This document shows, one piece after another, positions 3,769-60,668 of a stretch of DNA of 64,000 nucleotides. Numbering within the stretch: position 1 is the stretch's first letter; each line of letters starts with the position of its first letter. The notes under the pieces are model-generated. The model did no database searches. It saw only the letters and a program-made list of their open reading frames with translations, and was not told where the DNA came from. Source of the DNA: an archaeon (GTDB lineage Archaea; Iainarchaeota; Iainarchaeia; Iainarchaeales; Iainarchaeaceae); the NCBI GenBank assembly GCA_035289625.1, contig DATDWP010000016.1, forward strand, positions 11,871-75,870, written 5' to 3'. The position numbers and the translations under genes were made by a program.

Positions 3769-4062
3769 TATACTATAGTGAAGGGATTTGCTTATAGAAT
3801 ATAATGTTATTGTATTAGATCTTCAATGGAAAGGTATGAACTAGAGGCCACATGGAATGGCAAAGAGGATGTAGATTACTTTTATATAGTTTTTAGCCCA
3901 CTAATGTATTGTAGTGATTTTTGATGTATCAGAAAACTATTGAAAAGGAAGAGGGATATTCTAAGGCGCAGAAAGAGGAGATTAAAAAGGCACTTGAAGG
4001 CCTGCGTGTTTTTAGAAATAGCCCTAAAGTGATGTCTTACCTTAAGAAGAGGCAAGCAGAAC

Positions 4063-10190: not shown

Positions 10191-10441
10191 AATTAGAAAA
10201 ATGAAGAGTCAGGGAGTTAAATTCCTTTTTATTTTTCTTATGAATAACTAAAACCCTAAATCTTCCCTGTAAAATTTTTTCCCTAAAGCAATATTATTCT
10301 CAAACTCTAGAAGCCTTTTGTACCTATTCATAATAATCGTTGCATTAATACTTATTTTAAGTTTTCCGGCCAACATAACACTAATTTCTTGAAATTGCAG
10401 GAGGGCGGATTCGAACCGCCGAAGGCACTAAGCCAGCAGAT

Positions 10442-10576
10442 CTCTCAGACAGTTTTCAACCTAAAATTACACTTTTCTTTTTGGTCGAGCTTCCTTGCAG
10501 AACTTGTTCTGCGAGGCCTCGCAAAACCATTGGTTTTGCTAGGTTTCTTTTCTTGTTAAAGAAAAGAAAAAGGTCG
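10442..10576 (-). other. tRNA-Leu intron (135 nt), highly structured
   Basis: Lies between G37 and A38. Contains perfect hairpin 10544-10569 and palindromes 10497-10512 and 10521-10539. Confidence 0.8.
10489..10539 (-). repeat. Conserved double-hairpin module, copy 1 (inside the tRNA-Leu intron)
   Basis: Minus-strand GCAAAACC-AA-TGGTTTTGC GAGGCCTC GCAGAAC-AA-GTTCTGC AAGGAAGC. A second copy lies at 45272-45323 (+). Confidence 0.7.
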
Positions 10577-10803
10577 CTTGAGTCTGCCCCGTTTGACCGC
10601 TTCGATACCCCTGCAACAAATACCGTTTTGCTAATTGATTGTCCCGTGGCAAAGTATAAAAATCCTCTTTTGCAAAAAACCCTTCGCTTTTTTGGTTTTT
10701 TTATCAAAAATTTCTTCCCTTCCACGATTGTGGAAATACCAAGCGACGATCCCCGAAAAAGCGCGTGTTTAAATTGAAAGAAGATAGGTGTTAGTAAGGT
10801 GGG

Positions 10804-13700: not shown

Positions 13701-13755
13701 ACAAATAACATAGATGTTCACAATTTATAAACATAATGTTCACTAAAAATAAACA

Positions 13756-13938
13756 CGCGGGGGACGGGATTTGAACCCGTGAACCCTTTCGAGTAACAGC
13801 TAACTACCATCCAAACCAAATAAGAAAAGCAATTCATATTGCCGGGCTTTTTCTTTTGGTACAGCTTTTCTTTTGGGCCAAACCAAAAGAAAAGGTGTGT
13901 TAGCAGGCTGCCGCATTAGACCACTCTGCCACCCCCGC
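13756..13938 (-). tRNA. tRNA-Ser(GCU), class II, with 99-nt intron at 37/38
   Basis: Exons 13938-13901 and 13801-13756. GCGGGGG/CCCCCGC acceptor, GCA/UGC D stem, GCAGC/GCUGU anticodon stem, loop CUGCUA|A, variable arm UACUCGAAAGGGUUC, ACGGG-UUCAAAU-CCCGU T arm. Confidence 0.85.
13802..13900 (-). other. tRNA-Ser(GCU) intron (99 nt) with two polypurine/polypyrimidine hairpins
   Basis: Perfect 12-bp hairpin cttttcttttgg/ccaaaagaaaag at 13865-13894; imperfect hairpin at 13816-13859. Confidence 0.8.
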
Positions 13939-14184
13939 ATTTTAGGTGTTATATAAAAGTGCCAGGGTAAATTTAAAAGGTTTTAGAATAGGTAAACTAA
14001 ATTCTTTTATTGCCTCAATTTCAAACATAAAAAAATCTGTCTTGGATATAGGTCAATGGCTCACAAATTGAGGCAAAAGCAGGTGGCCCAAAACCGCAGC
14101 AAAGGCCTCGGTGACATAATAAAATATTTTTGTCTTATTTTTGTAAAACGAAGTTATGGTGCCCTGGCCATGCAATATTAGAGT

Positions 14185-15843: not shown

Positions 15844-16172
15844 CTATTTCACCTCAGAACAAAAAATTTGCAAAAATCAATTTATAAAAAGATTCACAAT
15901 AATTTAATCGCAATAACTCAATTGCAAAAAATGTGTAAGAAAAATCATGCAGATAGGCAAAGTATTGGGACAACAGAGAGTTCGGAAAGCAAATATTGTA
16001 AATAAAATGAAACGCAAATAATTCAGATTATAAAGTAAAGCAGCATAATAGTTAGTAAAGTAAACCGGTGTTGTGGGGCACAAAGGTTTTTATATTACAA
16101 TTCGATAGATTAATTCCTTTATACACTAAAGGAAAAAACCAGGCTCAAAAATATCTAAATAGGGGGATTACA

Positions 16173-19100
16173 ATGGCGGAAAAAAAATCAACTACTCATG
16201 GGACTCAAAAAACAAAAAACAACAAAGGCCTTGCAATACCCAGGGTTTTTACAAAAAAAGGCACTGACCCTCTTGAAACAATAGATTACGAATTTAGGAC
16301 ATCGATAATAAAAAACCCCGATGGCAGCACTGTTTTTGAAATGAAAGATATCGAAATACCAAAGCAGTGGACGCAGATAGCAACCGATATTATTGCGCAA
16401 AAATATTTTAGAAAAGCAGGCGTTCCGCAATTTGACAAGTACGCAAAACCGCTTCTTGACGAAAACGGCAAACAAATCTTAGGCCCTGAGAGGAGCGCTC
16501 GCCAGGTAGTTAATAGGCTAGCACAGACCTGGAGATGGTGGGGGGAAAAATACGGATATTTTGCAAGTGAAAATGATGCTAATGCTTTTGAAGATGAATT
16601 AAAATTCATGCTAATAAACCAGTACGCAGCGCCAAATAGCCCGCAGTGGTTTAACACGGGGCTCTATCACTCATATGGGATAAATGGCCCGGCGCAGGGG
16701 CACTATTTTGTAAATCCCGATAGTGGAATTTTGGAAAAATCAACAGATGCCTACTCACACCCACAACCACATGCGTGCGGACGCTATGACACATTGCTTT
16801 TTACTGAAAAGGGAATAATTCAACTTGGAAAAATGGTTGAAGAGAAGATGATTGGGGTAAAAGTATTTGACGGACAGCAGTTTGCCAGGGTAATTGCGGT
16901 TAAGGATAATGGCGTGAAAAAGGTTTTCAGGGCATCACTTTCAAACGGAAATTATATAGACTTCACAGATGACCATTTGGTCTTATCTGCAAAGACAAGA
17001 GACCACGCATTTGAATGGATTGAACTAAAGGACATTCTTGGATATAAGGTGCAGCAAGCTCTAAACTTGGAGCAATTACAAGGCCAGATTGTGGAAAATG
17101 TAAATGGGGCAGCCATGCAGAAGAGCATGGAAACCGAAATTGAGTTGGCAAAGGCAGAACTTTCCGGATGGATTGTTGGCGATGGGTATTTTGGCCAATA
17201 TGGCAAGACTACAATGCTCGGGGTAATAACAATCAATGATGACGAGTTTGAACATGTTAAGGGCCTATTTGAGAAAGTGCTTGGTGGATTTACAGTAACC
17301 GTGAAAAGGGAAATAAGCCCTACATATAGAATAGTGAGGCGGGACTTTAAAAGTGTGAGAGGATTTGTAAAAGAGTACGGACTTGAAAAGAAGTCGCTTA
17401 CTGCAAGCGTGCCAAATAAAATAATGCAGTCTGGTGCCGAGGTACAGCGGGCATTTTTGAGGGCACTTTTCCAGGCAGATGGATGTGTTAGGATTAGAAA
17501 TAACGGCAATTCAGGGGACGTTGTACTTACAACAATTTCTGAAGAACTTGCACATCAGGTGCAAAATGTTCTCCTCAATAACGGCATCTACTCAAGAGTG
17601 AGCCTCTGCAACGATTCGAGAAACGATAGGCATACACAGTACCATGTTGAAATCGCTTACTATTCAGAGAGGGTTAAATTTGAGAACCTAATTGGTTTTA
17701 TTTCAGAGGACAAAATCAACAAGTTGCAACGCCTTAATTTAACAGTAGACGGAAAAGAGAAGCCTATAATGTCACTTGAAACCGTATCCGCGATTGAATA
17801 CCTAGGGCAAGAACCTGTGTACGATATACAAACAGAGAGCGGAAAATTTACCGCAAACGGAGTAGTTGTCCATAATTGTTTCATACAATCAGTGAGTGAT
17901 GATTTGGTAAATGAAGGCGGAATTTTTGATCTTGTAACGCGCGAGGCGCGGATTTTCAAATACGGCTCCGGGACAGGGAGCAATTTTTCAATGCTAAGAG
18001 GAAAAGGAGAACCACTCTCAGGCGGCGGAGTGAGTTCGGGCCTTATGTCTTTTCTTAAAATTTTTGACAGGGCAGCGGGGGCAATAAAATCCGGAGGCAC
18101 CACGCGAAGGGCTGCAAAAATGGTAATTCTAAATGTTGATCACCCGGATATTGAAGAATTTGTAATGTGGAAAGTAATTGAGGAACAAAAAGTTGCAGCA
18201 ATGGTTGCAGGAAGCAAGAGTTGCAGCTACTATCTAAATGAAATAATGAGGCTAGCGCATGAAGGCAAATCAACTGATGTTAGAAAGAATAAAGAACTCG
18301 GGAGAACAATTCGCAGCGCCCTCAAATTCAATGTTCCCGCAAGCTATATTTTCAGGGCCTTGCAGCTAGCAGAGCAGGGGGAAACCAGCATTGATTTTAG
18401 AACATATGATACAAATTACAATTCAGACGCGTACGCAACAGTATCGGGGCAGAATTCAAACAATACAGTTAGGATTAGCAATGATTTTATCGAAGCTGTA
18501 CTAAATGATTCTGATTGGGAGTTAAAATTTAGGACAAATAAGAACATTACCCGCAAAATCAAGGCAAGGGATCTGTGGAACAAAATAGCAATTGCGGCCT
18601 GGCACTCGGCTGACCCCGGAGTGCAATATGATGACACAATAAATGAATGGCACACCTGCCCAAATGATGGAAGGATAAATGCAACAAACCCCTGCGTAAC
18701 CGGGGATACCTTAGTGCTTACAAAGGAAAACGGGTGGCAGAGGATAGACAAACTTGTCGGAAAGGAAATAGAATTAATCACAAACATAGATTCAATGAGC
18801 ACTGGTCTTACTAAAGGGTCATTTGAAACAGGCATAAAACCGGTTTATACTCTTACAACTAACGCCGGTTATGAAATAAAGCTCACTGCAGACCATAAAG
18901 TTTATACCGCAAACCGCGGGTTTGTACAGGCAGTAGAACTGACAAAAGATGATTTTGTGTGCCTACCTTCAGAGAACGTTGCTGAAATAAAAGAGCCAAC
19001 TGATAAGGACTTTTTCAGGCTTTTAGGGCTCTACCTTGGTGACGGGTGCGGCTCGAGGGGGCAAATACAGCTTACAATGGATAAGGCTGAAGAGAAGGTA

Positions 19101-21836
19101 CTCCAGAGGATGGTTGATTATTACAATAGGACCTTTGAGAAAATTACACACAAAAACTGGAACAGCAAAGTATTGCAGACACAGACAACTTCGAAAATCA
19201 ATGTCCTTGCAAAGAGTGCAATTGAAAAAATTTCCCCATTTATTGACCTTTCACAAAAATCACATGAAAAAACAATTTCAGAAGAAATTTTTTCACTCGG
19301 CCTCGGAGAGCAAAAATACATCCTCCAAGGGCTGTTTACAACTGATGGCACGGTTGCAAATTACAGCGAAAAAAGCCAATATGTTGCCCTTGATTCAACA
19401 AGCCTTGAACTCCTAAAAGGGACGCAGATAATATTGCTTGGGTTTGGAATAAAGAGCAAAATTTACAAAAACAGACGGGCAGGAAAACTTGTTGCACTGC
19501 TGCCAGGCAGCAACAGGAAGCTAAAAGAGTATAACGTGAGGGAGATGCATAGCCTGCGCATATCAAGGAGCTCACGGTTGGTGTTTGAAAAGTTAATCGG
19601 CTTTATGGATGAATCGTATAAAGGGGCACAGTTAGCTGAGCTTAATGCCACTGTTTCAGCGTATGAGGATAAACCATTTGACCGTGTGAAATCCCTTGAC
19701 TACATTGGAGAAGAAAAAGTTTATGATCTGACAGAGCCGTTCACGCATTCATTCATAGCAAACGGGGTTTCGGTGCACAATTGCTCAGAATATGTATTTT
19801 TGGATGACACTGCATGCAATCTTGCTTCAATAAACCTGATGCATTTTTTGAATGAAGGGGGCGAATTCCAAGTTGAACAGTTCTGCCATGCAACAAGGCT
19901 ATGGACCATGGTTCTTGAAATTAGCGTACTGATGGCCCACTTCCCTTCAAAAGAAATTGCACAAAAGAGCTATGACTATAGGACTCTAGGGTTAGGGTAT
20001 GCAAATTTGGGAACCCTTTTGATGGTTAATGGAATTCCATATGATTCAGATGAAGGAAGGGCAATTTCCGGGGCGCTTAGCGCAATAATGTGCGGCGAAT
20101 CTTATGCTACATCAGCTGAAATGGCAGGTGCAATCGGATCATTCCCGCGCTATGAGGCAAATAGATCGGAAATGCTAAAGGTAATAAGAAACCACAAAAG
20201 GGCAGCATACAATGCAAAGCCTTCAGAATATGAAGGCCTTACAATAAAACCTGTAGGAATTGAACCTGAAAAGTGCCCAAAAAAATTACTAAGTGCTGCG
20301 CGCACAGCTTGGGATAGGGCGCTAACTTTAGGGGAAAAGTATGGTTATAGGAACGCGCAAGTAACAGTAATTGCGCCCACCGGAACAATTGGGCTTGTAA
20401 TGGATTGTGATACTACCGGAATTGAACCTGATTTTGCAATGGTCAAATTCAAAAAGCTCGCAGGCGGGGGATATTTTAAAATAGTAAACCAGGCCCTAAC
20501 CCGCGCTTTGCAAAAACTTGCTTACCCAAAAGGCCAGATTGATGAAATTATAAAATATGTACGCGGCCACGGGACCCTTGCGGGCTGTCCTGCAATAAAT
20601 AAAGAAAGCCTTTTAGCTAAAGGGTTTACCAATGAGAAAATCGGTCTAATTGAATCCCAACTTGGCAATGTATTTGAATTAAAATTTGCATTCAACAAAT
20701 GGAGCATTGGAAAGGACTTTTGCATCCAACTGGGTTTTACTGAAAAGCAGCTAAATGACCCAGAATTTGATATGCTAAAAGAATTCGGGTTCTCAAAGCA
20801 GGAAATTGATGCGGCAAATGATTATGTGTGCGGCACAATGACAATAGAAGGCGCGCCATTTTTGCGCGAAGAGCACTACCCAATATTTGATTGCGCTTCC
20901 AAGTGCGGCAAGAAAGGGAAAAGGTTCATCCACCACATGGGGCATATAAAAATGATGGCAGCAGCCCAACCGTTTATTTCAGGGGCAATTAGCAAAACAA
21001 TCAATATGCCAAACCATTCAACTGTTGAGGAAATAAAGGATGCTTATTTGCAATCCTGGCAGCTAATGATAAAGGCAAATGCGCTCTACCGCGATGGCAG
21101 CAAGCTCTCACAGCCCCTCAATACAGTCTCTAGTGAAGATGAAATTGCATGGCTTGGTTCAGAAGAGGATATTGATGAAACAATTGGCCCGGCACAAATG
21201 CAGCAAAAAATTGAAATGAAATTGCAAAAAAAATCACTCCCTGCAAAAAGAAGGGGATTTGTACAAGAAGCAACAGTTGGAGGACATAAGGTTTTCATAA
21301 AAACAGGAGAGTACCCTGACGGGAATCTGGGGGAAATATTTATTGACATGTATAAAGAAGGGGCATCTTATAGGGCCCTTATGAACTGCTTTGCCGTAGC
21401 GGTTTCAAAGGCCTTGCAATACGGAGTGCCGCTTGAAGAATTTGTGGATTCTTTCACCTTCACGCGCTTTGAACCATCAGGAATTGTAAAGGGGCACGAT
21501 TCGATAAAGAATTCCACCTCAATAATCGACTACATCTTCAGGGTACTTGGATATGAGTATTTGGGAAGAACAGATTTTGTGCACATAAAACCAATAGAAG
21601 AGTCGCCGGAAGGGGAGCAGAAGAAAATAGTTCCGCAAAATAGATCAGAACTTGCAGTTCCAAAGAGCATGGAAGATCTTGATAAACCAACTTCAGAAGA
21701 AGAGCTCAAAATACGCGCAGCACGCAGCAAGGGATACACTGGCGATCAGTGCGGCTCATGCGGCTCTATGAAGGTGAAGAGGAACGGCGCGTGCACGGTG
21801 TGTGATGATTGCGGTGCAACTAGCGGCTGCTCTTAA
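16173..21836 (+). CDS. nrdJ: Class II (adenosylcobalamin-dependent) ribonucleotide reductase NrdJ, interrupted by two inteins; Cys-rich C-terminal tail
   Basis: Extein blocks QPHA|CFIQSV and TNP|CSEYVFL (radical Cys), [15 protein letters not shown]; tail [25 protein letters not shown] 16173 with a GGGGGA Shine-Dalgarno-like box. Confidence 0.9.
16776..17876 (+). mobile_element. Intein 1 in NrdJ (367 aa) with LAGLIDADG homing endonuclease
   Basis: Starts CGRYDTLLF, block B TDDH, LAGLIDADG motifs [12 protein letters not shown] and [12 protein letters not shown], ends VVVHN followed by +1 Cys. Confidence 0.9.
18693..19781 (+). mobile_element. Intein 2 in NrdJ (363 aa) with LAGLIDADG homing endonuclease, inserted at the NPC active-site cysteine
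   Basis: Starts CVTGDTLVL, block [17 protein letters not shown] and [12 protein letters not shown], ends VSVHN followed by +1 Cys of CSEY. Confidence 0.9.
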
Positions 21837-29120: not shown

Positions 29121-29405
29121 CAAGAATCTGATAGGCCACACCTCAGGCTAGCCTTTAAATGCCATTAGAGCTGGCCAGCAGGAAAATCTTCATCCAATAT
29201 TATGCTCTCGTTAGTTGTCAAAATGAGGCTCGAAGACGTCTTTTTGCCCCGGGGATTTTTTGGCCCTGCACAAAACTTTCGAAAAGCCTGAACTAAAACT
29301 CAATTTGGCAAAAACGGGAAATTCGAATTTAAAGGCAAATCTGATTTCTACAGAGCAGTGCAAAACCAAAACTTTAATTAGGTGAATAAACTCTTATTCT
29401 GCTGC

Positions 29406-30338
29406 ATGAAAACCAGTACTGTTGCACTTATGCTTGTGGCATTCTTATCCATTTCAGGTTGCGTAAATGTGACTTATGATAAAGGCAATTCAACAGATTT
29501 CCAAGAGTGCGGTAACCTTATTTGCGAGGACGGGGAAACAAAACTGACTTGTGCTACTGATTGTGTCCTTTGCTCTTCACCAGGTGGCTGTTCTGGCAAT
29601 TCGTACAGTTCCCCAAATTCGTACAGTTCCCCAATAATTTCTTCCACAACCGTTAGTCCTTCAAACCCAGGTTTGGGGCAGATCTTCACTCTTTCCCTTA
29701 CCGTGTCTGATGATCGCGGGATCAGATATGTTTTTTGGAACTCCTCAAAGCCTGTTTCTGTCCAAGGCAACCCGACTCTCTTGAAAGGGGATTTTTATGA
29801 TTGCGCTTTCCAGCCAACCTGTTCAGTTTCATTCAGGTTCAGTTCTGAAGAGCAAGGGCCGATACAATTCACTGTTTATGCGGATGATTCTGTCGGCAAC
29901 GAATCCGCAAGATCTGACTTTGAGGTTATCGTACAGTCATTCAAAAGGACCTCCACTGCTGCTGTTTGCGGAAATAATATTTGCGATAGCGGTGAAACAT
30001 CTAATAACTGTGCAGGCGACTGCCCAAGTGCACCTTGTTCTTCAGGCCCGGGATGCCAAGACCCAAATGATGATGTCACGTCCCCATTGTGCGGCAATAG
30101 CGCCTGTGAAACGGGCGAGGCTTTTGAAACCTGCCCGCAGGACTGCCCTTTTGAAAACAATGACGATTCAAATGCCTGCACCACAAATTCAGACTGCGGC
30201 TACCGACAGGCCTGTGAGGGCGGGAGTTGCGTTTCAGTTGAATGCACCAACGATTCGCAATGCTCCGGATGCAGGAGATGTTCGGATAATACGTGCCGCT
30301 CATGCGGATATGGCCCGACTGGTTTATGTTACTGCTGA
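29406..30338 (+). CDS. Cys-rich surface lipoprotein, short paralogue (3 CGN modules + Ig-like core + C-terminal Cys knot)
   Basis: Lipobox MKTSTVALMLVAFLSISGC (ATG 29406; the track start at 29382 is GTG). CGNLICEDGETKLTCATDC-type modules. C-terminus paralogous to the next gene. Confidence 0.75.
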   Translation: MKTSTVALMLVAFLSISGCVNVTYDKGNSTDFQECGNLICEDGETKLTCATDCVLCSSPGGCSGNSYSSPNSYSSPIISSTTVSPSNPGLGQIFTLSLTVSDDRGIRYVFWNSSKPVSVQGNPTLLKGDFYDCAFQPTCSVSFRFSSEEQGPIQFTVYADDSVGNESARSDFEVIVQSFKRTSTAAVCGNNICDSGETSNNCAGDCPSAPCSSGPGCQDPNDDVTSPLCGNSACETGEAFETCPQDCPFENNDDSNACTTNSDCGYRQACEGGSCVSVECTNDSQCSGCRRCSDNTCRSCGYGPTGLCYC

Positions 30339-30439
30339 ACTGCATTTTGTGAATTTTCCAAAAACACAAGTTAACCCAGGACAACACAACCCCCTACACA
30401 AAACAAACCTTTAAGTATAACCTAATTCAATATTTGGAA

Positions 30440-32380
30440 ATGAAATTTTATCCCATTTTGGTTGTTTTTGCAGGTTTTTTTCTTCTAAGCGGATGCGTCA
30501 CAATTGACCTTAGCGAGACAAACCAGACGACCAATGAAACTGTTAAGGGCGCTAACACAGCAGCCTCTTGCGGCAATGGATTTTGCGAGAGCTCGGAAAC
30601 ACTCGCTAGCTGCATTGCTGACTGCACCTATTTTATTGCGCAATGCGGAAACCTGATTTGCGAAAACGGCGAAACACCGGTTACTTGCGAGCAGGACTGC
30701 AGGCCGATTGTCCGCCATGATCTTTGCGGGAATGGGATTTGCGATACCGGAGAGTATGATGAAACGTGCCCTCAGGATTGCCCGCTGCCCGATCCTGTAC
30801 GCGAGGCGTGCGGAAACAGAATTTGCGACACCGGGGAAAATAATTTCTTGTGCCCAACGGATTGTGAAGTGCAGGTAATATGTGGTGATGGGGGGTGCAG
30901 CACAAGTGAAACGCCTGAAACATGCAGCTTGGATTGCGGTTACTCAAACCCTATTTGCGGCAATGCTTTCTGCGAGCCCGGCGAAAGTGCACAAACATGC
31001 CCTGTTGATTGCAGCACCATTGATGCTTTAGGTAATGTGTGCGGCAACGATTCATGCGAACCTGGAGAGACAAGGGAAATGTGCCTGGTTGACTGCAGGT
31101 TTGTTTTCCCGAGGTCAATTTTTGATGTAAACAACAATTTGCCTGACGATCTTAATTCCTTTGACCAGCTGCGGATTTGCGGTAACTATTATTGTGAATC
31201 GAATGAAACAGAACAAAGTTGTCCACGCGATTGCGGCGATCGCCCCGGATTTTGTGGGGACGGTTTTTGTGCAGTGATCGAGGGCTCACAAACCTGCCCT
31301 CAAGACTGCCGCCTTCCTCTGCGACCAGAAACATGCGGGAACGGTATTTGTGATGCAACAGAGGCGTCCACTGCCTGCTGGACGGACTGTTCAGAAGACC
31401 TTACAACCACGTGCGGCGATGGGATTTGTGCAGGGACAGAGAATGCGGCAAGCTGCTCTGAAGATTGCTGGACAAATGGTTCTGGTGACCAATTCCCCTC
31501 GCTCACGGTAACAGTGAGCCCTTCAAACCCTTCACAGAGCACTACTTTCAATCTGACGGTTAGCGCGCAAGACGATGTGGGAATAGACCAGATTTTCTGG
31601 AGCGCCGACAAGTTCATTCCTGATTATAACCACTTGAATTCCTTTGACTGCAACATGCAGACAACATGCACTCATTCATGGGCTGAGCTTATTGCAATCG
31701 AGGAAGGAACTATCCGGATAACTGTTTATGCCACTGATTCTTCAGGACAGCAGTCAGGAAGGCCTGTTATGGAAGTCAATGTCGGGCCTTTTAGGCCTTA
31801 CACTGTTGAAACAGGGGGAGCTGTATGCGGCAATGGCTCGTGCCAGTCCACAGAGAGCCCGAGTTCGTGCCCTTCTGATTGCAACAGCGGAGAAACGGTC
31901 ACAACAATGTGCGGGAACAGCATCTGTGAAACAAGTGAAAGTTCAACAAGCTGTCCGCAGGACTGCTCTGCTGCCCCTTCAGGTCCAATATGCAACAACA
32001 ATATCATTGAGGGTTCAGAAGTCTGTGACGGCACTTCGCTTAGCGGACAAACCTGCCAAACACAAGGCTTTACCTACGGTACATTAAGGTGCAATTTCAT
32101 TTGCTCGGGCTATGATAGGAGTAACTGCTCCAACACCCCTGCTGCAGTGTGCGGCAACGGAACCTGTGAAGCTTCAGAGAGCGAGACAAGCTGTGCTGCT
32201 GACTGCTCTGTTGAAGACGAATGCAGCACGAATTCAGACTGCGGCTATAAGCAAGTTTGCGAATTTGGAGAATGTGTTTCTGTCGAATGCACTAATAGCG
32301 CACAGTGCGGAACATGCCAAAGATGTTCGGATAACATGTGCCGTTCATGCGGTTATGGGCCATATGGCTGCTACTGCTGA
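30440..32380 (+). CDS. Cys-rich surface lipoprotein, long paralogue (14 CGN modules)
   Basis: Lipobox MKFYPILVVFAGFFLLSGC. 14 copies of C-G-[ND]-x2-C-x3-E-x4-C-x2-DC; shared SPSNP...D[DR][VG]GI..[IV]FW core; shared C-terminal 50-aa Cys knot ending CRSCGYGP.G.CYC. Confidence 0.8.
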   Translation: MKFYPILVVFAGFFLLSGCVTIDLSETNQTTNETVKGANTAASCGNGFCESSETLASCIADCTYFIAQCGNLICENGETPVTCEQDCRPIVRHDLCGNGICDTGEYDETCPQDCPLPDPVREACGNRICDTGENNFLCPTDCEVQVICGDGGCSTSETPETCSLDCGYSNPICGNAFCEPGESAQTCPVDCSTIDALGNVCGNDSCEPGETREMCLVDCRFVFPRSIFDVNNNLPDDLNSFDQLRICGNYYCESNETEQSCPRDCGDRPGFCGDGFCAVIEGSQTCPQDCRLPLRPETCGNGICDATEASTACWTDCSEDLTTTCGDGICAGTENAASCSEDCWTNGSGDQFPSLTVTVSPSNPSQSTTFNLTVSAQDDVGIDQIFWSADKFIPDYNHLNSFDCNMQTTCTHSWAELIAIEEGTIRITVYATDSSGQQSGRPVMEVNVGPFRPYTVETGGAVCGNGSCQSTESPSSCPSDCNSGETVTTMCGNSICETSESSTSCPQDCSAAPSGPICNNNIIEGSEVCDGTSLSGQTCQTQGFTYGTLRCNFICSGYDRSNCSNTPAAVCGNGTCEASESETSCAADCSVEDECSTNSDCGYKQVCEFGECVSVECTNSAQCGTCQRCSDNMCRSCGYGPYGCYC

Positions 32381-32599
32381 AGAAATCATTTCCCCATCCG
32401 CCCCTTTTTCCTTGATAGACAAAGGCTTGTTTTCAGGGGCTGTTTTCTGCATAATCAGGCAAGTTCGACACTCATATGCCCTTTCATTGCCCGGGCCAAC
32501 TCATTTTTCCCGATGTTTGGACGGAAAGGTCATTGTGGAATGGCCACTTGTGGCAATCTATTGGCAATATTTTGCACCACGACCAAAAAATGGTTTGAG

Positions 32600-32672
32600 C
32601 GCCGAAGGGTGGATTTGAACCACCGACCCTCCGGTTAACAGCCGGATGCTCTACCTGCTGAGCTACCTCGGC
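32600..32672 (-). tRNA. tRNA-Asn(GUU), no intron
   Basis: GCCGAGG/CUUCGGC acceptor (one G-U), GCUC-AGCAGGUA-GAGC, UCCGG-CUGUUAA-CCGGA, GGUGG-UUCAAAU-CCACC. Confidence 0.9.
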
Positions 32673-34475: not shown

Positions 34476-34524
34476 ATTAAATGTGGGATTAGTAGAGTTT
34501 TATATCAAAGCAGATTTTAAGCGT

Positions 34525-34800
34525 GAACACGCCCCAAAGTGGATTTGCAAAGCAGCAATAGCGTTTTACCCTAAATCCACTCCTAACTTCCGGAAAAACC
34601 CTTAAGCATTGAGTGCAAAAGTTACCGCTGCTCCCTTCCGGGCCTTGCGGGGTTGGCCTTGGCAAACAACCTTAAGGGACAGAAGGTCATTGTTATGGAA
34701 AGGCACTACAACAACTAAGCAAACCGCCCTCAAGGCTTCGATCCCGTCTAAAGCGGAATTGACGGCAACAGGGAACCACTACCTCCCCAATCTAGTCCAC
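34525..34800 (-). ncRNA. ffs: Signal recognition particle RNA (archaeal 7S RNA); ends approximate
   Basis: Minus-strand GGCCCGGAAGGGAGCAGCGGUAAC (34621-34644) matches the conserved helix-8 core. It also has an Alu-domain-like 5' part (GGGAUCGAAGCC..GAGGGCGGUU), a 5' GUGGA / 3' UCCAC closing pair, and a TATA box at 34822-34830. Confidence 0.72.
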
Positions 34801-34821
34801 TATCAATAGGGGTAAGTGAAG

Positions 34822-44948: not shown

Positions 44949-45176
44949 ATGACTCGCGAATTTGAGGTTATTCAAAAACAGGCGCTAAAGGCGCTCTCGA
45001 TCTACTCGATGGTAGTTTTACTTGGCGGGCTTTTTCTCTCATCAATTGTCGAAGGGCTCAGGTTGCATTTGATGGGATCTAGCGCGCAAGCTACACTACT
45101 CTATTTTGCAGGCATTGGTTCACTTGCGGTAACAATATATGTGTACAAGAAAGGCAGGGAAATAATCGGCGCATAA
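44949..45176 (+). CDS. Small two-TM membrane protein
   Basis: 75-aa ORF with two hydrophobic helices. Confidence 0.4.
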   Translation: MTREFEVIQKQALKALSIYSMVVLLGGLFLSSIVEGLRLHLMGSSAQATLLYFAGIGSLAVTIYVYKKGREIIGA

Positions 45177-45249
45177 AATTTACAGACTCTTTCTACTAAT
45201 TTACACTTTTTTGAGTCAAATTTATATTCTCTTTCTTTTTGGCCACGAC

Positions 45250-45357
45250 TTTGTTTCTTTTCCGCCACATTGCAAACCTTTCGGTTTGCGATGCCTCGCA
45301 GAACTTTTGTTCTGCAAGGAGGCTTTTCTTTTTCTTTGTAAGAAAAAGAAAAAAGTT
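45250..45357 (+). repeat. Structured repeat block next to tRNA-Ala: double-hairpin module copy 2 (45272-45323) plus polypyrimidine/polypurine hairpin (45323-45355)
   Basis: GCAAACC-TTTC-GGTTTGC GATGCCTC GCAGAAC-TTTT-GTTCTGC AAGGAGGC, then CTTTTCTTTTTCTT-TGTA-AGAAAAAGAAAA. Confidence 0.7.
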
Positions 45358-45363
45358 GTAGTT

Positions 45364-45435
45364 TGGACCCTGCGGGGATTGAACCCGCGGCCTCTTCGTT
45401 GCGAACGAAGCGCTCTACCACTGAGCTAAGGGCCC
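45364..45435 (-). tRNA. tRNA-Ala(CGC), no intron
   Basis: GGGCCCU/AGGGUCC acceptor with the G3:U70 identity pair, GCUC-AGUGGUA-GAGC, CUUCG-UUCGCAA-CGAAG, GCGGG-UUCAAUC-CCCGC. Confidence 0.9.
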
Positions 45436-49322: not shown

Positions 49323-49411
49323 AACCAGATCTTTTTTGACTAGACTTTTTCCAAATCTTGCCACAGAGCAATGTATATATTCTCTACTTCCGTCTATTAA
49401 TTGGGTTTTTA

Positions 49412-52400
49412 ATGGCTAGGGAAAAGGAAGAAAAAAAGGCTCTTGAAGAGAAACCGCGCGAATTTGGCGAAGGTGAGGCAATAGAGCGAACCCAGGTAAA
49501 CCCGCAAGATACCGATATTTTTGATGAGTTTTTAAAAGGCAAAAACAAGGAAAAGGCGGCAAAAGTTCGGCAGGCAATCGATAAGAACGATGAAGATCTG
49601 CCAGACAATGAGGATATTGAAATGGAAGAAGATGACGAGCAAGAGGATGAAGAAGACTCTAAATCCAAAATAGTTGAAACGGAGCAAGAGCCTTCAGAAG
49701 AAGAAAAACCAAAAAGGCAAAGAAAGCCCCGCAAAAAAGCTGCTCCTAAAGTAGATGCAAAAAGTGAAGGATTTTCTAATAAAGCGCATGACGATGAATC
49801 TGAAGGCATAAAACTGAAAGGAAAAGACCCGGCACAGATATCAAAAGAGCAAGAAGAAGATACATTAGATTCTGAAGAAAAAATAGGGGAAGAAGCAGAA
49901 GTTTCGCAAAAAATCGAAGAAGAAACTGAAGGCGAAGAGATTTTAGGCGATGATGAACCGGGAGAGTGGACTGATGAGGAATTTGATTATGATATTGACC
50001 ATGATGCAAAAGAACCGGAGGAATTAACTAAACCAATTGTGCCAACGCGCGAGGAAATAAAAAAAACAGTGCTGGCAAAAGCGAGCATGGCATCCGGGGG
50101 AGTTGACGAAATAGATTTGGCGGCAGAAAAACTCCAGTTCCTTTCAGACCCGCAGAAAAAATCTGTTTTTATCGGAAGAAAGGCAAGCATTTACAAAAAA
50201 TATGGCTTTGAAGCAGCTCTGCAACTCGGAAAGGTGCAGGAAAAAGACCTTGAGGGCTGGGATGTTTATCTTGATTCCCTAAACCCGCATGTTGTATTTG
50301 TTTGCGGAGCGCGAGGATCCGGAAAGTGCTTAACCGGAGACACGCTAATTACTCTTGACTCAGGCGAGGTTGTGCCAATAAGGGAGCTTGAGAATAGGAA
50401 TGAAAAAATATTTGCCGTCGATAATAAATTGAAAATTACCTCTGCAATTAGAACGGGATTCTATAAAAGAACGGTCAGCAAAATATTGAAAATAAAAATG
50501 CAAAGTGGAAAAGAAATTGAATTAACTCCTGAACACCCTCTCCTTACAATAAACGGCTGGAAGCCAGCTGAAGAATTTTCCCGGGGAGATAGGATAGCAA
50601 CTCCGCGGATATTGCCTGCATTCGGAAATACCAAAATGAAAGAATGCGATGTCAAACTACTTGCATACTTAATCGCAGAAGGGCATCTGGACAATCAATT
50701 TGTTTTATTCAGCAATATGAACGAAAAAATAAACAGTGAATTCAAAGAAAGTGTTTTACAATTTGACCCCAATTTAAGAGTAGAACTACATTCAAAAGAA
50801 GGGTGTTTTAGAGTTGCACAGATAAAAAAGAAAGTAGATTTGAGCCATATTGTCAGAGATTCTACTACAGGAAGGTTTACTGATAAAGGTTACATTCTAA
50901 TGGAAAGAAGCTCAATAAGAAAATGGCTTGAAAGTATTGGTTTATACGGAAAGCTTGCCGGAGAAAAATTTATTCCAAAAGAAATAATGAAACTGGAAAA
51001 AGGCCAGCTAGCCCTTTTCCTAAACAGACTTTTCAGCTGTGATGGATCCATATATAGGATCAACAAGGGAAAAAGCTGGGCTGTTTCTATTGGGTTCACT
51101 TCTAAAAAACTTACACAGCAGGTTCAACATTTGATTGCAAGGTATGGAGTAATTTCCACTTTCAGGAACAAAATAAATAGGCAACACGGACGGGACATAC
51201 CAAATTACGAAGTTGTTCTATATGGAGAAAACGTAATCAAGTACATACAGGAAATCGGATTTTTTGGCTATAAAGAAGAAAGAGCCGCAATTGCCCTCGA
51301 GGAAATGGCAGCACAAATTAGAAATCCTAATTTGGACACTATCCCAATAGAAGTATGGAATAAATTCCAAGTGAGAAATTGGAAGCAGATGGCAAGAGAG
51401 CTAGGATATGCCCCACAATCGTTCCACAACACAAGGAATTATTCCCCATCAAGGGAAAAGCTAGCAAAAATGGCAAGAATTGAGGGAAATTCAGGAATAG
51501 AAATGCTTGCCCAATCTGACATTTACTGGGACATCATAAAAGAAATAACTGAAATTAATCAAGAAACGGAAGTTTATGATATAACTGTACCTGAACTGCA
51601 CAACTTTGTTGCAAATGATATAATAGTGCATAACTCCTACGTTCTTGGTGTAATAGCTGAAGAACTAGCAGACAAAAACAAAAATGTAGGAATAATTGTT
51701 GTCGACCCTATTGGAGTATTTTGGTCAATGAGATTTGCAAATAAGGATGAGAAGGAACTTGAAAAATTAAAAGAATACGGACTTGAGGCGAAAGGGCTCT
51801 CGGGCCTTAAAGTATTCATTCCGGAAGGCATGAAAGACCAGGTGCCAAAATCAACATATGATGCCGGATTTGCAATACAGCCATCCCTTCTAACCGGCGA
51901 GGATTGGGCCTTAACATTTGGTGTTGATAGGTTTTCTGTTTCAGGGCTCTTGTTAGATAAGGTTTTGAAAAAAGTCGAAACCGGCTATAAAAAAACTACT
52001 ACAGAAGAGAGTGCAAAACCCGGGGAAAAAGTAAAACCTAAAGGAAAGAAATACGCGCTCGAGGATCTGATAGAGTGCCTTGAAACTGATTCTGAATTAA
52101 ACAGCCGGGACAAAGGATATAAACAGGATTCAATTAGGGCAATTATCAGCAGATTTGAAGCTGCAAAGAGCTGGGGGATATTCCACGAAAAAGGGACTCC
52201 GTTAGGAGAACTCTCCCGCGAGGGGCAGATGACAATACTTGACACCTCATTTTTGGAGGATAATGTAACCGCGCTTGTAATCGGAATACTTGCAAGAAGA
52301 TTGCTCTCTGCAAGAAAAATCGGGACAAGAAAAGAAGCTGCAAACAAATTCAAATCACTAAACATGAACGAACTCTTAGAACTCGAAGTCCCGCCAACTT

Positions 52401-53935
52401 GGCTCTTTATTGATGAAGCGCACACATTAATTCCGAGCGGAAATGAAATGACCGCGGCAACTGCCGGACTTATCGAATATGTAAAGCAAGGAAGAAGGCC
52501 AGGCCTTTCACTCGTATTTGCAACACAGCAGCCATCTGCAATTAATACAAAAGTTTTGAGCCAATTAGACGTCATAATGACCCACAAGCTTATTTTTGAT
52601 GATGACATTAAAGCGGTGTTCAAAAGGACCCCGACAATAATTCCACGAAAATACCGCAACCCAAATTTTATAAAAACACTGCCCGTAGGGGTTGCAGTTA
52701 CTGGGGATAGGCGCGAGGAGACAAGCAGGGCATTTGTTATGGGGATTCGCCCGCGCAAAAGCCAGCACGAGGGAAGGGATGCTGAAACAACCGGGCTATC
52801 TGAACAGGTGGATTCAGCTCAGGCACAAAAAATTGCATTTGAAATGCTTTTGAAAAATGTAAAAGAGGAAAAGAGAATTGATATGGATAAAGCAAAACTT
52901 GCAGTAGAAACCCTTAATGCAAAATACAGAACACATGTGGATTTTGAAAAGCTACTAAAAGAACTTGAGGCAAAAGGCCTTGAGGTTTCTGAGAGCTCAA
53001 TAGCAGTTGCCGGATTTGCTGCAATGGCACAAGAAGAAGAGGCAGAAGATGAAGTTTTAGATGAAGAGCAAACACAAGAACAGCAAGCACTCGGACTTGA
53101 TAGAGAAGAGCTTGTCCCGCTAAAAAGAGGCGAAGAATCTGAAGATGGGCAAGAAGGGACAGACGCAAAAACAAATCCACTCGAACTTGATCTTCTATCT
53201 CTCCCGCAGAGAATTAATGAGCAGGACGCGAGAAGAGTTGTTGAAGGAGTTAGAAAGAAGGCCTTTTTTGGAATTTTGGGAAATGCCGAAAGAATTGAGT
53301 GGATAAAATTGCGCCACTACCCGATATGGAGGATCAAATTTGATGCCCCTACAAGAAGAGGGGAATTTATTTCACGCGAATGTTTTGTCAATTCACTCTC
53401 AGGCGAATTTGTGCACTTCAAGGACGGGCAGTTTATCGAATCAAAAGGGCTTGTGCAAATTAATGATTTGGGTGATGAGGAAGCAATGACCCTCAAACTT
53501 TTGCAAAAGCGCGAAATGCTGCTAGAGGAAATTATGGCACAGACACAAATGGATGAAGCCCGCCTTAGAAGGGTTTTGCAAAAATTGGTGGATCGCGCGC
53601 TTGTTGCAAAAACACAAAAGAACGCGCGGGAAATATTTTCACTCAAAGAAAAACTCGACCTTCCCCCAAGCGAGAGGCATGAACTATTAGGTTCACTTTC
53701 AACCCTTCCATTTGTTAGAACTGAAGCGCTTAGCATCGAGAGGGAGAAGTACTCAAGGGAGGATATAACAAAAGCGCTGCGAAAGCTATGGGGAAGTATT
53801 CTTGTAAAAAAAATCGAGCCGCTCTATAAACCCATTTGGCATGTAGTGCTATCCGAGGATGCAAAAGAGAGAACGGTTATAATTGATGCGGTGAACGGAA
53901 AAATTATTAGTGAAAAGGCAAATACTACTACATAA
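49412..53935 (+). CDS. Giant HerA/FtsK-superfamily (DUF87-like) P-loop ATPase with acidic/Lys-rich N-terminal region, an intein, and a C-terminal wHTH-like region
   Basis: Split Walker A GARGSGK|SY, IIVVDPIGVF, Walker B WLFIDEAHTLIP, LVFATQQPSAI. ATG 49412 preferred over TTG 49358. Confidence 0.8.
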   Translation: MAREKEEKKALEEKPREFGEGEAIERTQVNPQDTDIFDEFLKGKNKEKAAKVRQAIDKNDEDLPDNEDIEMEEDDEQEDEEDSKSKIVETEQEPSEEEKPKRQRKPRKKAAPKVDAKSEGFSNKAHDDESEGIKLKGKDPAQISKEQEEDTLDSEEKIGEEAEVSQKIEEETEGEEILGDDEPGEWTDEEFDYDIDHDAKEPEELTKPIVPTREEIKKTVLAKASMASGGVDEIDLAAEKLQFLSDPQKKSVFIGRKASIYKKYGFEAALQLGKVQEKDLEGWDVYLDSLNPHVVFVCGARGSGKCLTGDTLITLDSGEVVPIRELENRNEKIFAVDNKLKITSAIRTGFYKRTVSKILKIKMQSGKEIELTPEHPLLTINGWKPAEEFSRGDRIATPRILPAFGNTKMKECDVKLLAYLIAEGHLDNQFVLFSNMNEKINSEFKESVLQFDPNLRVELHSKEGCFRVAQIKKKVDLSHIVRDSTTGRFTDKGYILMERSSIRKWLESIGLYGKLAGEKFIPKEIMKLEKGQLALFLNRLFSCDGSIYRINKGKSWAVSIGFTSKKLTQQVQHLIARYGVISTFRNKINRQHGRDIPNYEVVLYGENVIKYIQEIGFFGYKEERAAIALEEMAAQIRNPNLDTIPIEVWNKFQVRNWKQMARELGYAPQSFHNTRNYSPSREKLAKMARIEGNSGIEMLAQSDIYWDIIKEITEINQETEVYDITVPELHNFVANDIIVHNSYVLGVIAEELADKNKNVGIIVVDPIGVFWSMRFANKDEKELEKLKEYGLEAKGLSGLKVFIPEGMKDQVPKSTYDAGFAIQPSLLTGEDWALTFGVDRFSVSGLLLDKVLKKVETGYKKTTTEESAKPGEKVKPKGKKYALEDLIECLETDSELNSRDKGYKQDSIRAIISRFEAAKSWGIFHEKGTPLGELSREGQMTILDTSFLEDNVTALVIGILARRLLSARKIGTRKEAANKFKSLNMNELLELEVPPTWLFIDEAHTLIPSGNEMTAATAGLIEYVKQGRRPGLSLVFATQQPSAINTKVLSQLDVIMTHKLIFDDDIKAVFKRTPTIIPRKYRNPNFIKTLPVGVAVTGDRREETSRAFVMGIRPRKSQHEGRDAETTGLSEQVDSAQAQKIAFEMLLKNVKEEKRIDMDKAKLAVETLNAKYRTHVDFEKLLKELEAKGLEVSESSIAVAGFAAMAQEEEAEDEVLDEEQTQEQQALGLDREELVPLKRGEESEDGQEGTDAKTNPLELDLLSLPQRINEQDARRVVEGVRKKAFFGILGNAERIEWIKLRHYPIWRIKFDAPTRRGEFISRECFVNSLSGEFVHFKDGQFIESKGLVQINDLGDEEAMTLKLLQKREMLLEEIMAQTQMDEARLRRVLQKLVDRALVAKTQKNAREIFSLKEKLDLPPSERHELLGSLSTLPFVRTEALSIEREKYSREDITKALRKLWGSILVKKIEPLYKPIWHVVLSEDAKERTVIIDAVNGKIISEKANTTT
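50327..51634 (+). mobile_element. Intein (436 aa) with LAGLIDADG endonuclease inserted in the Walker A loop
   Basis: Starts CLTGDTLITL, block B TPEH, LLAYLIAEGHLD and FLNRLFSCDGSIY, ends DIIVHN followed by +1 Ser. Confidence 0.9.
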
Positions 53936-60510: not shown

Positions 60511-60569
60511 CACACTTTTCTTTTTAGTCAAGTTTTTTCTTTTCGTGTAATGAAAAGAAAAAAGTTGAG
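60511..60569 (+). repeat. Polypyrimidine/polypurine repeat block abutting the 5' end of tRNA-Ser(CGA)
   Basis: acacttttctttttagtcaag (19/21 identical to 10469-10489), then hairpin TTTTTTCTTTTTC-GTGTAAT-GAAAAGAAAAAAG, ending 5 nt before the tRNA. Confidence 0.7.
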
Positions 60570-60653
60570 GCGGAGGTGGCAGAGAGGTCAAATGCGCACC
60601 GCTCGAGACGGTGTTCCCGCAAGGGAGCGCGAGTTCAAATCTCGTCCTCCGCG
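60570..60653 (+). tRNA. tRNA-Ser(CGA), class II, no intron
   Basis: GCGGAGG/CCUCCGC acceptor, GCA/UGC D stem, CACCG-CUCGAGA-CGGUG, variable arm UUCCCGCAAGGGAGC, GCGAG-UUCAAAU-CUCGU, discriminator G. A T5 tract follows. Confidence 0.9.
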
Positions 60654-60668
60654 CCTTATTTTTCAAAT

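Follow-up and report, generated by a model that had tools for sequence, protein, structure and literature searches.

Why do four of the five tRNA genes in one stretch of archaeal DNA carry the same kind of polypyrimidine/polypurine hairpin, inside an intron or beside an end of the tRNA? The stretch, called the window here, is 64,000 nt of an Iainarchaeota genome (assembly GCA_035289625.1, contig DATDWP010000016.1, positions 11,871 to 75,870), and its proteins are ∼55-65% identical to proteins on contigs of Candidatus Iainarchaeum and related metagenome-assembled genomes (MAGs). A first-pass annotation had described the hairpins and proposed several roles for them. To that description the present analysis adds a third mirror tract at every hairpin, two shared GC hairpins and a polarity rule by which the hairpin faces the tRNA. 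On sequence evidence, the hairpins are the predicted Watson-Crick core of a three-block intrastrand triplex module. The element is a tRNA-associated, A/T-rich archaeal variant of a known, unexplained class of repeats, the intrastrand triplex repeats described in bacteria since 2000 (Hoyne, Maher et al. 2000; Holder et al. 2015, PMC4666352).

All of the hairpins in the first-pass annotation are present, with perfect pyrimidine/purine stems of 10-13 bp at four of the five tRNA loci. The hairpin in the tRNA-Leu intron (10544-10569) has a perfect 11-bp stem and a 4-nt loop, and that in the tRNA-Ser(GCU) intron (13865-13894) reaches 12 bp with its GG/CC pairs counted in. The adjoining segment 13816-13859 folds too, through imperfect purine/pyrimidine pairing, and its purine tract (13816-13829) can alternatively pair with the third pyrimidine tract, Y2, described below. 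The stem 3' of tRNA-Ala spans 13 bp at 45324-45352; the one 5' of tRNA-Ser(CGA) spans 12 bp at 60533-60563 and is flanked by G/G (60532/60564), from which 5 nt remain to nucleotide +1 (60570). A 21-mer said to be shared by two of the loci does match at 19 of 21 positions, with one copy at 10469-10489 as described and the other at 60512-60532, one nucleotide from the 60511-60531 first given. tRNA-Asn(GUU) (32599-32672, - strand) is the sole tRNA of the window without the element and serves as an internal negative.

Within the window, the perfect hairpins are confined to these tRNA loci. A scan for pyrimidine-loop-purine hairpins of at least 9 bp with at most one mismatch, run on the whole window and on simulated windows, returned six matches against a simulated mean of 1.5, and the four perfect stems of 10-13 bp are the four tRNA loci. 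The exact decamer CTTTTCTTTT occurs nine times in the window against 1.66 expected, a count reached by none of 100 shuffles; five of the nine sites lie at tRNA loci and four inside long open reading frames (ORFs).

Each hairpin belongs to a larger unit. Read 5' to 3' on the window + strand, the strand called the Y-form opens with Y2 and S2a, continues in some copies with two GC hairpins, and closes with Y1', a loop, R1' and S2b, where Y2 is the third pyrimidine tract, Y1' the pyrimidine arm and R1' the purine arm; the complementary strand is the R-form. The element comes in two sizes, a mini version of ∼55 nt and a full version of ∼110-135 nt with two conserved 11-bp GC hairpins between S2a and Y1'. 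The Y-form lies on the + strand in all four window copies.

Two of these copies are mini elements. The copy in the 5' leader of tRNA-Ser(CGA) (60512-60568, +; delimited by sequence, hairpin scan and fold) has its Y-form on the tRNA strand and comprises S1a ACAC (60512-60515), Y2 CTTTTCTTTTT (60515-60525), S2a TCAA (60528-60531), Y1' TTTTTTCTTTTC (60533-60544), a loop holding S1b GTGT (60545-60551), R1' GAAAAGAAAAAA (60552-60563) and S2b TTGA (60565-60568). The tRNA itself (60570-60655, +; ARAGORN and Rfam) has its +1 one nucleotide past the end of S2b. The same arrangement recurs at a tRNA-Ser gene of a related Iainarchaeum (locus L033; L numbers denote loci from other sequences), where S1 changes from ACAC/GTGT to GGGC/GCCC. 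The mini element at 13847-13900 (+) has its Y-form antisense to tRNA-Ser(GCU) (13755-13939, -), whose 99-nt intron (∼13802-13900; ARAGORN i(40,99)) contains it; its blocks are Y2 (13847-13859), S2a TACAG (13860-13864), Y1' (13865-13876), R1' (13883-13894) and S2b TGTGT (13896-13900).

The other two copies are full elements. That at 10469-10576 (+), again antisense to its tRNA, lies in the 135-nt intron (∼10444-10578, canonical position 37/38; ARAGORN i(38,135), with exon and intron also read by hand) of tRNA-Leu(CAA) (10395-10615, -). It comprises Y2 (10472-10484), GC hairpins at 10493-10516 and 10517-10543, and the Y1'/R1' hairpin (10544-10569), with a purine arm that extends to 10573 and a closing stem that uses TCG (10574-10576). 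The copy at 45227-45359, catalogued as repeats D4 and I7, lies in the 3' flank of tRNA-Ala(CGC) (45364-45435, -; ARAGORN/Rfam). The Y-form of this copy is on +, the tRNA strand carries the R-form, and the closing stem is 4 nt from the tRNA 3' end. Y2 TTCTCTTTCTTTTT (45227-45240) is followed by GC hairpins at 45268-45293 and 45294-45319 and by the Y1'/R1' hairpin (45323-45352); the closing stem pairs 45245-45252 with 45352-45359 and includes a pair that is G.U on the + strand only.

The two GC hairpins common to the Leu-intron and Ala-trailer copies (repeat I7, inverted orientation) share the consensus CCTTGC...GCGAGG | CCTCGC...GCAAGG. One genome per species was scanned for this core, and then for tract, core and tract together. 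Ten different full copies came out of the core scans, and each belongs to Candidatus Iainarchaeum or to an unclassified archaeal MAG; three copies lie in CAYJRH01 and at least four in the window. A metagenome scan added two loci only, duplicates of L011 and L008, and a scan of viral contigs with the centre of the full element matched only coding sequence, by chance. When the copies are aligned, 98.4% of GC-hairpin cells are paired and seven pairs have changed on both sides; none of 500 shuffles reaches the covariation score, and slid controls collapse. Archaeal copies also share a conserved G/G or G/A mismatch at the base of the pyrimidine/purine hairpin. The fourth pair is T.G in the first GC hairpin and C.A in the second in every full copy, which looks the same on both strands. 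A partner-swap fold between the outer and inner 6-mers of the two hairpins was ruled out, the CCT-to-CAT changes being compensated within each local hairpin. Rfam covariance models had no match on the elements even at E<=10, matching only tRNA, signal recognition particle (SRP) RNA, rRNA and RNase P, and searches of the literature on the raw motif, prokaryotic triple helices and Diapherotrites tRNA introns found no description of the element.

The evidence for a third strand comes from the register of Y2. All copies, the four of the window and the related ones, have the blocks Y2 - Y1' - R1' along one strand, with Y - R - R along its complement. Y2 is the parallel complement of R1' and the mirror image of Y1', not an inverted complement. 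Stems measure 9-15 nt, mini loops 5-10 nt, and the first loop of full copies, which holds the two GC hairpins, ∼60-70 nt. Published definitions of potential intrastrand triplex (PIT) motifs require a stem of 6-15 nt and differ on the loops, for which the ITxF database allows 1-6 nt and Hoyne et al. 0-10 nt (PMC4666352). The mini loops fall within the Hoyne limits and partly above those of ITxF, and the full-copy first loop lies outside both.

The three-block motif also occurs in ANME-1/Methanophagales, many bacteria and phage contigs, away from tRNAs. A relaxed mini pattern (T4CT4, 5-14 nt, T4CT4, 3-12 nt, A4GA4) matches at least 120 loci. The tract T4CT4 is nearly its own mirror image, and only asymmetric tracts are informative on register. 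Among the matches listed, 69 copies have an asymmetric purine arm; the asymmetry of Y2 is parallel to it in 48 and antiparallel in 6, and exactly equal in 30 parallel cases against 1 antiparallel. In the same listed copies, Y1' shows the expected antiparallel sign in 55 against 4. Collapsing the listed matches, ∼130 copies from many genomes, into 102 clusters by similarity of flank, linker and loop leaves 35 parallel against 5 antiparallel (p=1.4e-6). Hand-parsed copies from the DPANN superphylum agree, with the parallel register ahead in 12 of 14. In L008, for example, Y2 is TTCTCTTTCTTTTTC and R1' is AAGAGAAAGAAAAAGG, giving a parallel score of 15 against 7 antiparallel; the corresponding scores are 14 against 7 (L007), 14 against 9 (L012), 14 against 8 (L014) and 12 against 9 (the Ser(CGA) leader copy), and the intron copy of L106 has a perfect 14-nt mirror. 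A Watson-Crick pairing of Y2 with R1' proposed by RNAalifold was taken as an artefact of low-complexity alignment, as explicit register tests favour the parallel arrangement.

To our knowledge, no replication-based process generates mirror repeats, and the mirror covariation is therefore read as selection on a three-stranded fold. This indicates that the three-stranded register itself is a probable target of selection. The Y-form strand could fold back twice on itself into T.A-T and C+.G-C triples, and we infer from the covariation that such triplexes do form. In the published scheme the Y-form would be a class IV and the R-form a class II intrastrand triplex (PMC4666352). The first-pass suggestion of triplex-prone tracts gains support from the third tract at every hairpin, which stands in mirror register, and from the covariation of that register across copies.

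Folding statistics point to the Y-form as the strand that folds. Fold z-scores, computed with ViennaRNA on the Watson-Crick parts only (triples are not modelled), are lower for the Y-form (+) than for the other strand in all four window copies: -6.1 against -4.3 (Leu intron), -7.4 against -6.2 (Ala trailer), -4.1 against -2.2 (Ser(CGA) leader) and -4.7 against -3.5 (Ser(GCU) intron). In Y-form orientation, G.U pairs outnumber A.C pairs 15:6 in DPANN copies and 32:11 in bacterial S2 stems; the ratio is 5:0 in intron copies, where the sense RNA is the other strand. The folding molecule may be RNA or single-stranded DNA, and the fold and G.U data do not separate the two because G.T, the most tolerated DNA mismatch, is accepted in DNA as well. 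A replication-strand explanation for the shared + orientation of the four window copies was ruled out, since L007 and L013 carry both orientations within 200-300 nt.

Copies in other genomes reveal how the element is placed. The first-pass annotation had found no constant orientation, which is correct relative to the tRNA strand; a strict rule does exist, however, in that every tRNA-associated DPANN copy has its hairpin end proximal to the tRNA. In 5' leaders the Y-form is on the tRNA strand and ends 1-6 nt before +1. There are six such copies: the window tRNA-Ser(CGA), tRNA-Arg(GCG) and tRNA-Arg(CCG) of L007, tRNA-Cys of L012, tRNA-Val of L013 and tRNA-Ser of L033. Intron copies (window Leu and Ser(GCU), L026, L040, L087, L106, L033, L078 and L110) have the R-form on the tRNA strand, starting 2-5 nt past the 5' splice site. 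Within L110, the 161-nt intron of a tRNA-Ser(GGA) gene (2605-2851) consists of three tandem pyrimidine-purine-purine modules with TTGGG linkers. Trailer copies (window Ala, tRNA-Trp of L010, tRNA-Val of L013, L098, two in L110, and L122) likewise have the R-form on the tRNA strand, 2-10 nt past the 3' end. The tRNA-Val gene of Ca. Iainarchaeum andersonii (L013:1535-1832, AQRS01000040) thus sits between an upstream Y-form full element and a different downstream R-form full element. A further A-run-G-CTGTA-CC-purine tract follows the downstream L013 element and also the L010 copy. The copies of L060, L067 and L104 follow, by eye, tRNA fragments, which suggests non-canonical introns. Among the mini-pattern matches listed, 14 of 39 in archaea (all 14 in DPANN) and 2 of 101 in bacteria lie within 30 nt of a called tRNA. 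As a separate observation, three non-tRNA copies (L054:5099-5145, L130:3347-3392 and L014:312-470) place the Y-form purine arm 8-25 nt before a start codon or ∼10 nt before a TATA-like box.

Near-identical copies at unrelated sites suggest how this distribution may have arisen. The element in the window Ser(GCU) intron is identical at 53 of 55 positions to that in the tRNA-Arg(GCG) leader of L007, in a different genome, tRNA and context and in opposite orientation to the tRNA strand. In I. andersonii, the leader copies of tRNA-Cys (L012) and tRNA-Val (L013) are identical at ∼108 of 110 positions, and the copied unit is delimited by the points where this similarity breaks off, Y2 at one end and GGTT|tRNA at the other. 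A mini version in L061 and a full version in L014 belong to one sequence family near homologous HAD/278-aa genes, so the GC-hairpin pair behaves as an insertion into the first loop. The earlier proposal of a small mobile element at tRNA genes and introns is strengthened by these identities and by the recurrence of the element in other DPANN genomes.

The reading we favour, and to which we give about even confidence, is that the element is a multi-copy, non-coding, triplex-type repeat of Iainarchaeota and other DPANN archaea that spreads by copy and paste and persists where tRNA processing removes its RNA. Such a repeat would survive in a 5' leader next to +1, in the intron loop after the 5' splice site, or in a 3' trailer next to the discriminator. 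What is recognised or propagated is probably the single-stranded Y-form, whether in RNA or in DNA, and host effects would probably be by-products, including T-tracts able to terminate archaeal transcription, long leaders and enlarged or new introns. This reading was chosen because it alone is indifferent to the direction of host transcription. From the near-identity of copies we infer that they arose by mobility rather than gene conversion; an enzyme would presumably drive the process.

Several observations weigh against a propagating triplex repeat. About half of the full copies (L007, L008, L009, L011 and L014) lie in ordinary spacers with no recognisable adjacent tRNA. Terminal inverted repeats were not seen (the copied unit ends in Y2 on one side and ...AAGGTT on the other), nor were target-site duplications in the window copies or in L012/L013, and the element has no linked transposase, reverse transcriptase or other enzyme. 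No pair of empty and filled sites was recovered, so that mobility is deduced from sequence identity. The neighbouring GMP synthase, used as a query for close relatives, retrieved distant bacterial and archaeal matches only, without synteny, and the genome of the window itself is absent from the GTDB representative set. The DUF4013 protein of the window retrieved identical contigs only, from which no presence/absence polymorphism can be read. Gene conversion between tRNA loci could mimic mobility. A purely selfish repeat has no obvious need for a base-specific triplex, whose strong covariation suggests that selection acts on the structure. The constant polarity, and the spacing of 1-9 nt from tRNA ends, could reflect host function rather than insertion preference. 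Finally, BoxC of Escherichia coli gave no stable triplex in vivo (PMC4666352).

Chance low-complexity sequence in AT-rich intergenic DNA is the easiest alternative to dismiss, and for practical purposes it is refuted. Some of the symmetry comes free with such simple tracts, T4CT4 being nearly its own mirror, and A/T-rich triplex motifs are relatively common in the scrambled genomes of a published database (PMC4666352). Chance does not, however, account for the decamer excess and the restriction of strong hairpins to tRNA loci, the mirror register retained by asymmetric tracts, the compensatory changes in the GC hairpins, or cross-locus identities of 53/55 and ∼108/110. The two host roles put forward by the first-pass annotation, processing or stability helices for pre-tRNAs and a promoter/terminator device, fare better, but each leaves the mirror covariation unexplained. 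In one version of the latter, the element would be a bidirectional oligo-T terminator or insulator around tRNA genes, the hairpin representing two back-to-back terminators, and we regard this as rather unlikely. T5-T6 runs begin 3-10 nt past the 3' ends of tRNA-Ala, the L010 tRNA-Trp and the L013 tRNA-Val; incoming transcription would meet two T-tracts and outgoing transcription one, in agreement with the polarity rule; in ANME-1, stop codons are followed by copies at 5-55 nt, on the strand that carries the R-form; and some bacterial copies come after strong GC hairpins, in the manner of intrinsic terminators. Trailer copies carry, as an archaeal oligo-T terminator would, a run of 5 T or more on the non-template strand shortly past the gene end, but the same tracts also occur within introns and leaders. 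Sense-strand T5 tracts in the tRNA-Leu and other introns, and in leaders past likely promoters, would abolish the tRNA if they terminated efficiently. Terminators also leave the complementarity of the arms at C/G positions and the mirror register of the third tract unaccounted for, GC hairpins directly before Y2 are not commoner in the bacterial matches listed than at control positions (25/91 vs 18/89), and E. coli PIT motifs have no terminator activity (PMC4666352).

A role of the hairpin in positioning or shielding the cleavage sites of RNase P, the splicing endonuclease and tRNase Z seems improbable to us, although the element lies within 1-9 nt of all three kinds of junction. In a doubly flanked tRNA the two elements could form a leader-trailer stem like those of archaeal rRNA operons and split tRNAs; by eye, the upstream Y-form and downstream R-form arms at the I. 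andersonii tRNA-Val could partly pair across the acceptor stem, but they are different sequence variants and the pairing is imperfect. The tRNA-Leu intron element lies, again by eye, in a loop closed by a bulge-helix-bulge-like motif. Against this, most tRNAs are flanked on one side only and tRNA-Asn has no element at all, every ANME-1 or bacterial copy and half of the full ones lie away from tRNAs, the G.U evidence in introns favours the antisense strand over the pre-tRNA, and the third tract is given no role. A further alternative, unlikely but a little easier to credit than processing helices, is a cis-acting RNA triple helix like that of MALAT1 and MEN-beta, in which U.A-U and C+.G-C triples sequester the A-rich arm at an RNA 3' end; RNase P would cut 1-6 nt after the structure and leave a blunt, exonuclease-resistant 3' end on the leader or upstream transcript. 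The block order, from Hoogsteen U-tract through stem-loops, Watson-Crick U-tract and A-rich tract to tRNA, is the MALAT1 layout, and in each of the six leaders the Y-form shares the tRNA strand and ends 1-6 nt before +1, but this orientation is already predicted by the hairpin-proximal rule and is not independent support. TATA-like TTTTTAAC boxes seen by eye upstream of the element in the window, L012 and L013 suggest that the element is transcribed in the leader; in L033 and L007, however, the nearest such box is, by eye, so close that Y2 may stay untranscribed. The Y-form strand is the one favoured by G.U pairs, RNA is able to form pyrimidine-motif triplexes (PMC4666352), and at least one motif-carrying lineage has RNase P RNA (L104). 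Intron and trailer copies, on the other hand, give the pre-tRNA the purine-motif strand, reported not to make RNA triplexes (PMC4666352), and a Y-form transcript there would require antisense transcription into the tRNA gene. The T5-T6 tracts of Y2 and Y1' are, moreover, archaeal termination signals.

A bolder extension of the propagating repeat joins these threads: the module would be a mobile agent of tRNA-intron gain and growth in DPANN, joined hairpin-first at pre-tRNA cut sites, with leader copies as the archaeal counterpart of MALAT1. We consider it rather doubtful. The joined form would be a single-stranded, triple-helical pseudoknot and the sites +1, the anticodon-loop splice site and the 3' end; in leader copies, RNase P would make the 3' end of the triple helix. 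If true, it would connect the chemistry of tRNA processing with the origin of introns and with a recognition structure built on a triplex.

With or without that extension, a propagating triplex repeat places the element among several known systems. PIT/TM motifs are abundant, conserved prokaryotic repeats without an assigned function (PMC4666352). One of them, E. coli BoxC (TM_ECO), is G/C-rich, has pyrimidine-purine-purine order and sometimes occurs as inverted pairs; it has no promoter or terminator activity and is associated with local genome variability (PMC4666352). The archaeal element resembles it in having three homopyrimidine/homopurine blocks per strand, in being multi-copy, intergenic, conserved and sometimes in inverted pairs, and in having no assigned function, flanking-gene consensus or linked enzyme. 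BoxC, however, is G/C-rich, proteobacteria-only and has loops of 3-6 nt, whereas the element is A/T-rich (T.A-T with single C+.G-C triples), belongs to DPANN archaea, and adds S2 closing stems, in bacterial versions an S1 pseudoknot stem, and optionally the two GC hairpins (∼60 nt) in the first loop. PMC4666352 does not describe, for PIT motifs, a placement of fixed polarity in the leaders, introns and trailers of tRNAs. The archaeal family therefore offers what bacterial ones lack, a strict rule of tRNA position and polarity together with clear mirror covariation.

In Thermoproteales, the similarity of introns in different tRNAs has been put down to intron transposition, that is, to movement and gain (Fujishima et al. 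2010, summarised in PMC4033280). The likeness lies in similar intron sequences shared across tRNA species within one archaeal lineage; compared through that summary, the unit described here differs in being triplex-type, in occurring also in leaders, trailers and non-tRNA spacers and in both orientations, and in belonging to another superphylum. As a sequence-defined unit, it is a candidate for the origin and spread of tRNA introns and long leaders in genome-reduced DPANN archaea. Miniature inverted-repeat transposable elements (MITEs) and repetitive extragenic palindromes (REPs) resemble the element in being small, structured and non-coding and in having multiple, nearly identical copies at loci with no relation to one another, and bacterial versions of the motif end repeated non-coding elements of 200-700 bp, some as outward-facing inverted pairs. 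Unlike MITEs and REPs, the archaeal copies were found to have no terminal inverted repeats, target-site duplications or cognate transposase, and MITEs and REPs lack the mirror repeat.

In MALAT1 a tRNA-like substrate of RNase P comes after the triple-helix layout, and the U-tracts have a single interrupting C, as they do in the element. Every copy here has, on its Y-form, two U-rich tracts flanking one or more stem-loops and an A-rich tract in triple-helix register, as in MALAT1 and MEN-beta, and in leader copies only (window Ser(CGA), L007 twice, L012, L013 and L033) a tRNA follows the A-rich tract directly. In contrast to MALAT1, a real tRNA stands downstream, most copies (those in introns, in trailers and away from tRNAs) lack the layout on the transcribed strand, and there is neither sequence homology nor an Rfam match. 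Should the leader copies fold as RNA into triple helices that end where RNase P cuts, they would be a prokaryotic parallel to the MALAT1 3'-end mechanism; we know of no earlier one. A 2026 review of RNA triple helices covers riboswitches, group II introns and eukaryotic or viral stability elements, and mentions no prokaryotic element of this kind (PMC13541005).

In bacteria and phages, where the motif is widespread, its order is S1a - TTTTCTTTT - S2a - TTTTCTTTT - S1b - AAAAGAAAA - S2b (loci L017-L136 on genome contigs and L139-L161 on viral contigs). Both stems covary and no Rfam family corresponds to it; from its sequence, it looks like an H-type pseudoknot with a putative major-groove triplex. 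The extra stem of bacterial copies joins the 5' flank to the hairpin loop: among the matches listed, at least 5 bp of complementarity to the copy's own loop is found in 25 copies against 5 controls. Repeated non-coding elements have the motif as their end module in Bacteroidota, Selenomonadales, Clostridia, Polaromonas, candidate phyla radiation (CPR) bacteria and others, and in some Polaromonas and Bacteroidales elements it stands at both ends, facing outward. The neighbours of bacterial copies are unrelated housekeeping genes. A TnpB/IscB omega-RNA or other mobile-element guide RNA was suggested by their conserved upstream and variable downstream sequence; this was rejected on account of those neighbours and the absence of a transposase beside any copy examined. 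ANME-1/Methanophagales (L021, L023, L028, L048, L051, L057, L070, L072, L076, L077, L079, L082, L114 and L121) have many mini copies whose loops are very short and whose ACAGG...AGTGT stem is conserved, as is an upstream GCTTTACCAAAAGAA; they lie usually a few nucleotides after a stop codon and not near tRNAs.

The elements also have practical consequences, as they hamper tRNA gene calling and appear to break short-read assemblies. Five tRNAs are found in the window by ARAGORN with introns allowed, Leu(CAA), Ser(GCU), Asn, Ala(CGC) and Ser(CGA), and two of the five, Leu(CAA) and Ser(GCU), are seen in intron mode only and missed by standard ARAGORN and Rfam. In both, removing the intron restores the cloverleaf, the interruption lying at or near position 37/38 in that mode. 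At the tRNA-Leu splice region, a central helix (CTCA/TGAG) and an outer helix (GAC/GTC) can be read by eye, giving the bulge-helix-bulge-like motif. An independent short-read contig (L138, Logan SRR2090153) ends at locus position 3820, about window position 60541, within the Ser(CGA) leader hairpin; this break suggests that the repeat fragments assemblies.

Other features of the window were recorded alongside. An archaeal SRP RNA lies at 34521-34802 (Rfam). Between guaA and the Ala-trailer element, a small ORF of ∼75 aa (44950-45177, +) below the ORF-listing threshold encodes a membrane-protein-like product and is followed by a degenerate ACACTTTTTTGAGTCAA (45203-45219) that resembles Y2 plus S2a. 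Two adjoining ORFs at 29382-32380 (+) lie where the GC content is locally raised (0.50 against ∼0.41) and contain many diverged repeats of 34-65 nt that encode Cys-rich CGN..C modules (families D1-D3). Two very large ORFs encode 1922 aa (16068-21836, +) and 1525 aa (49358-53935, +).

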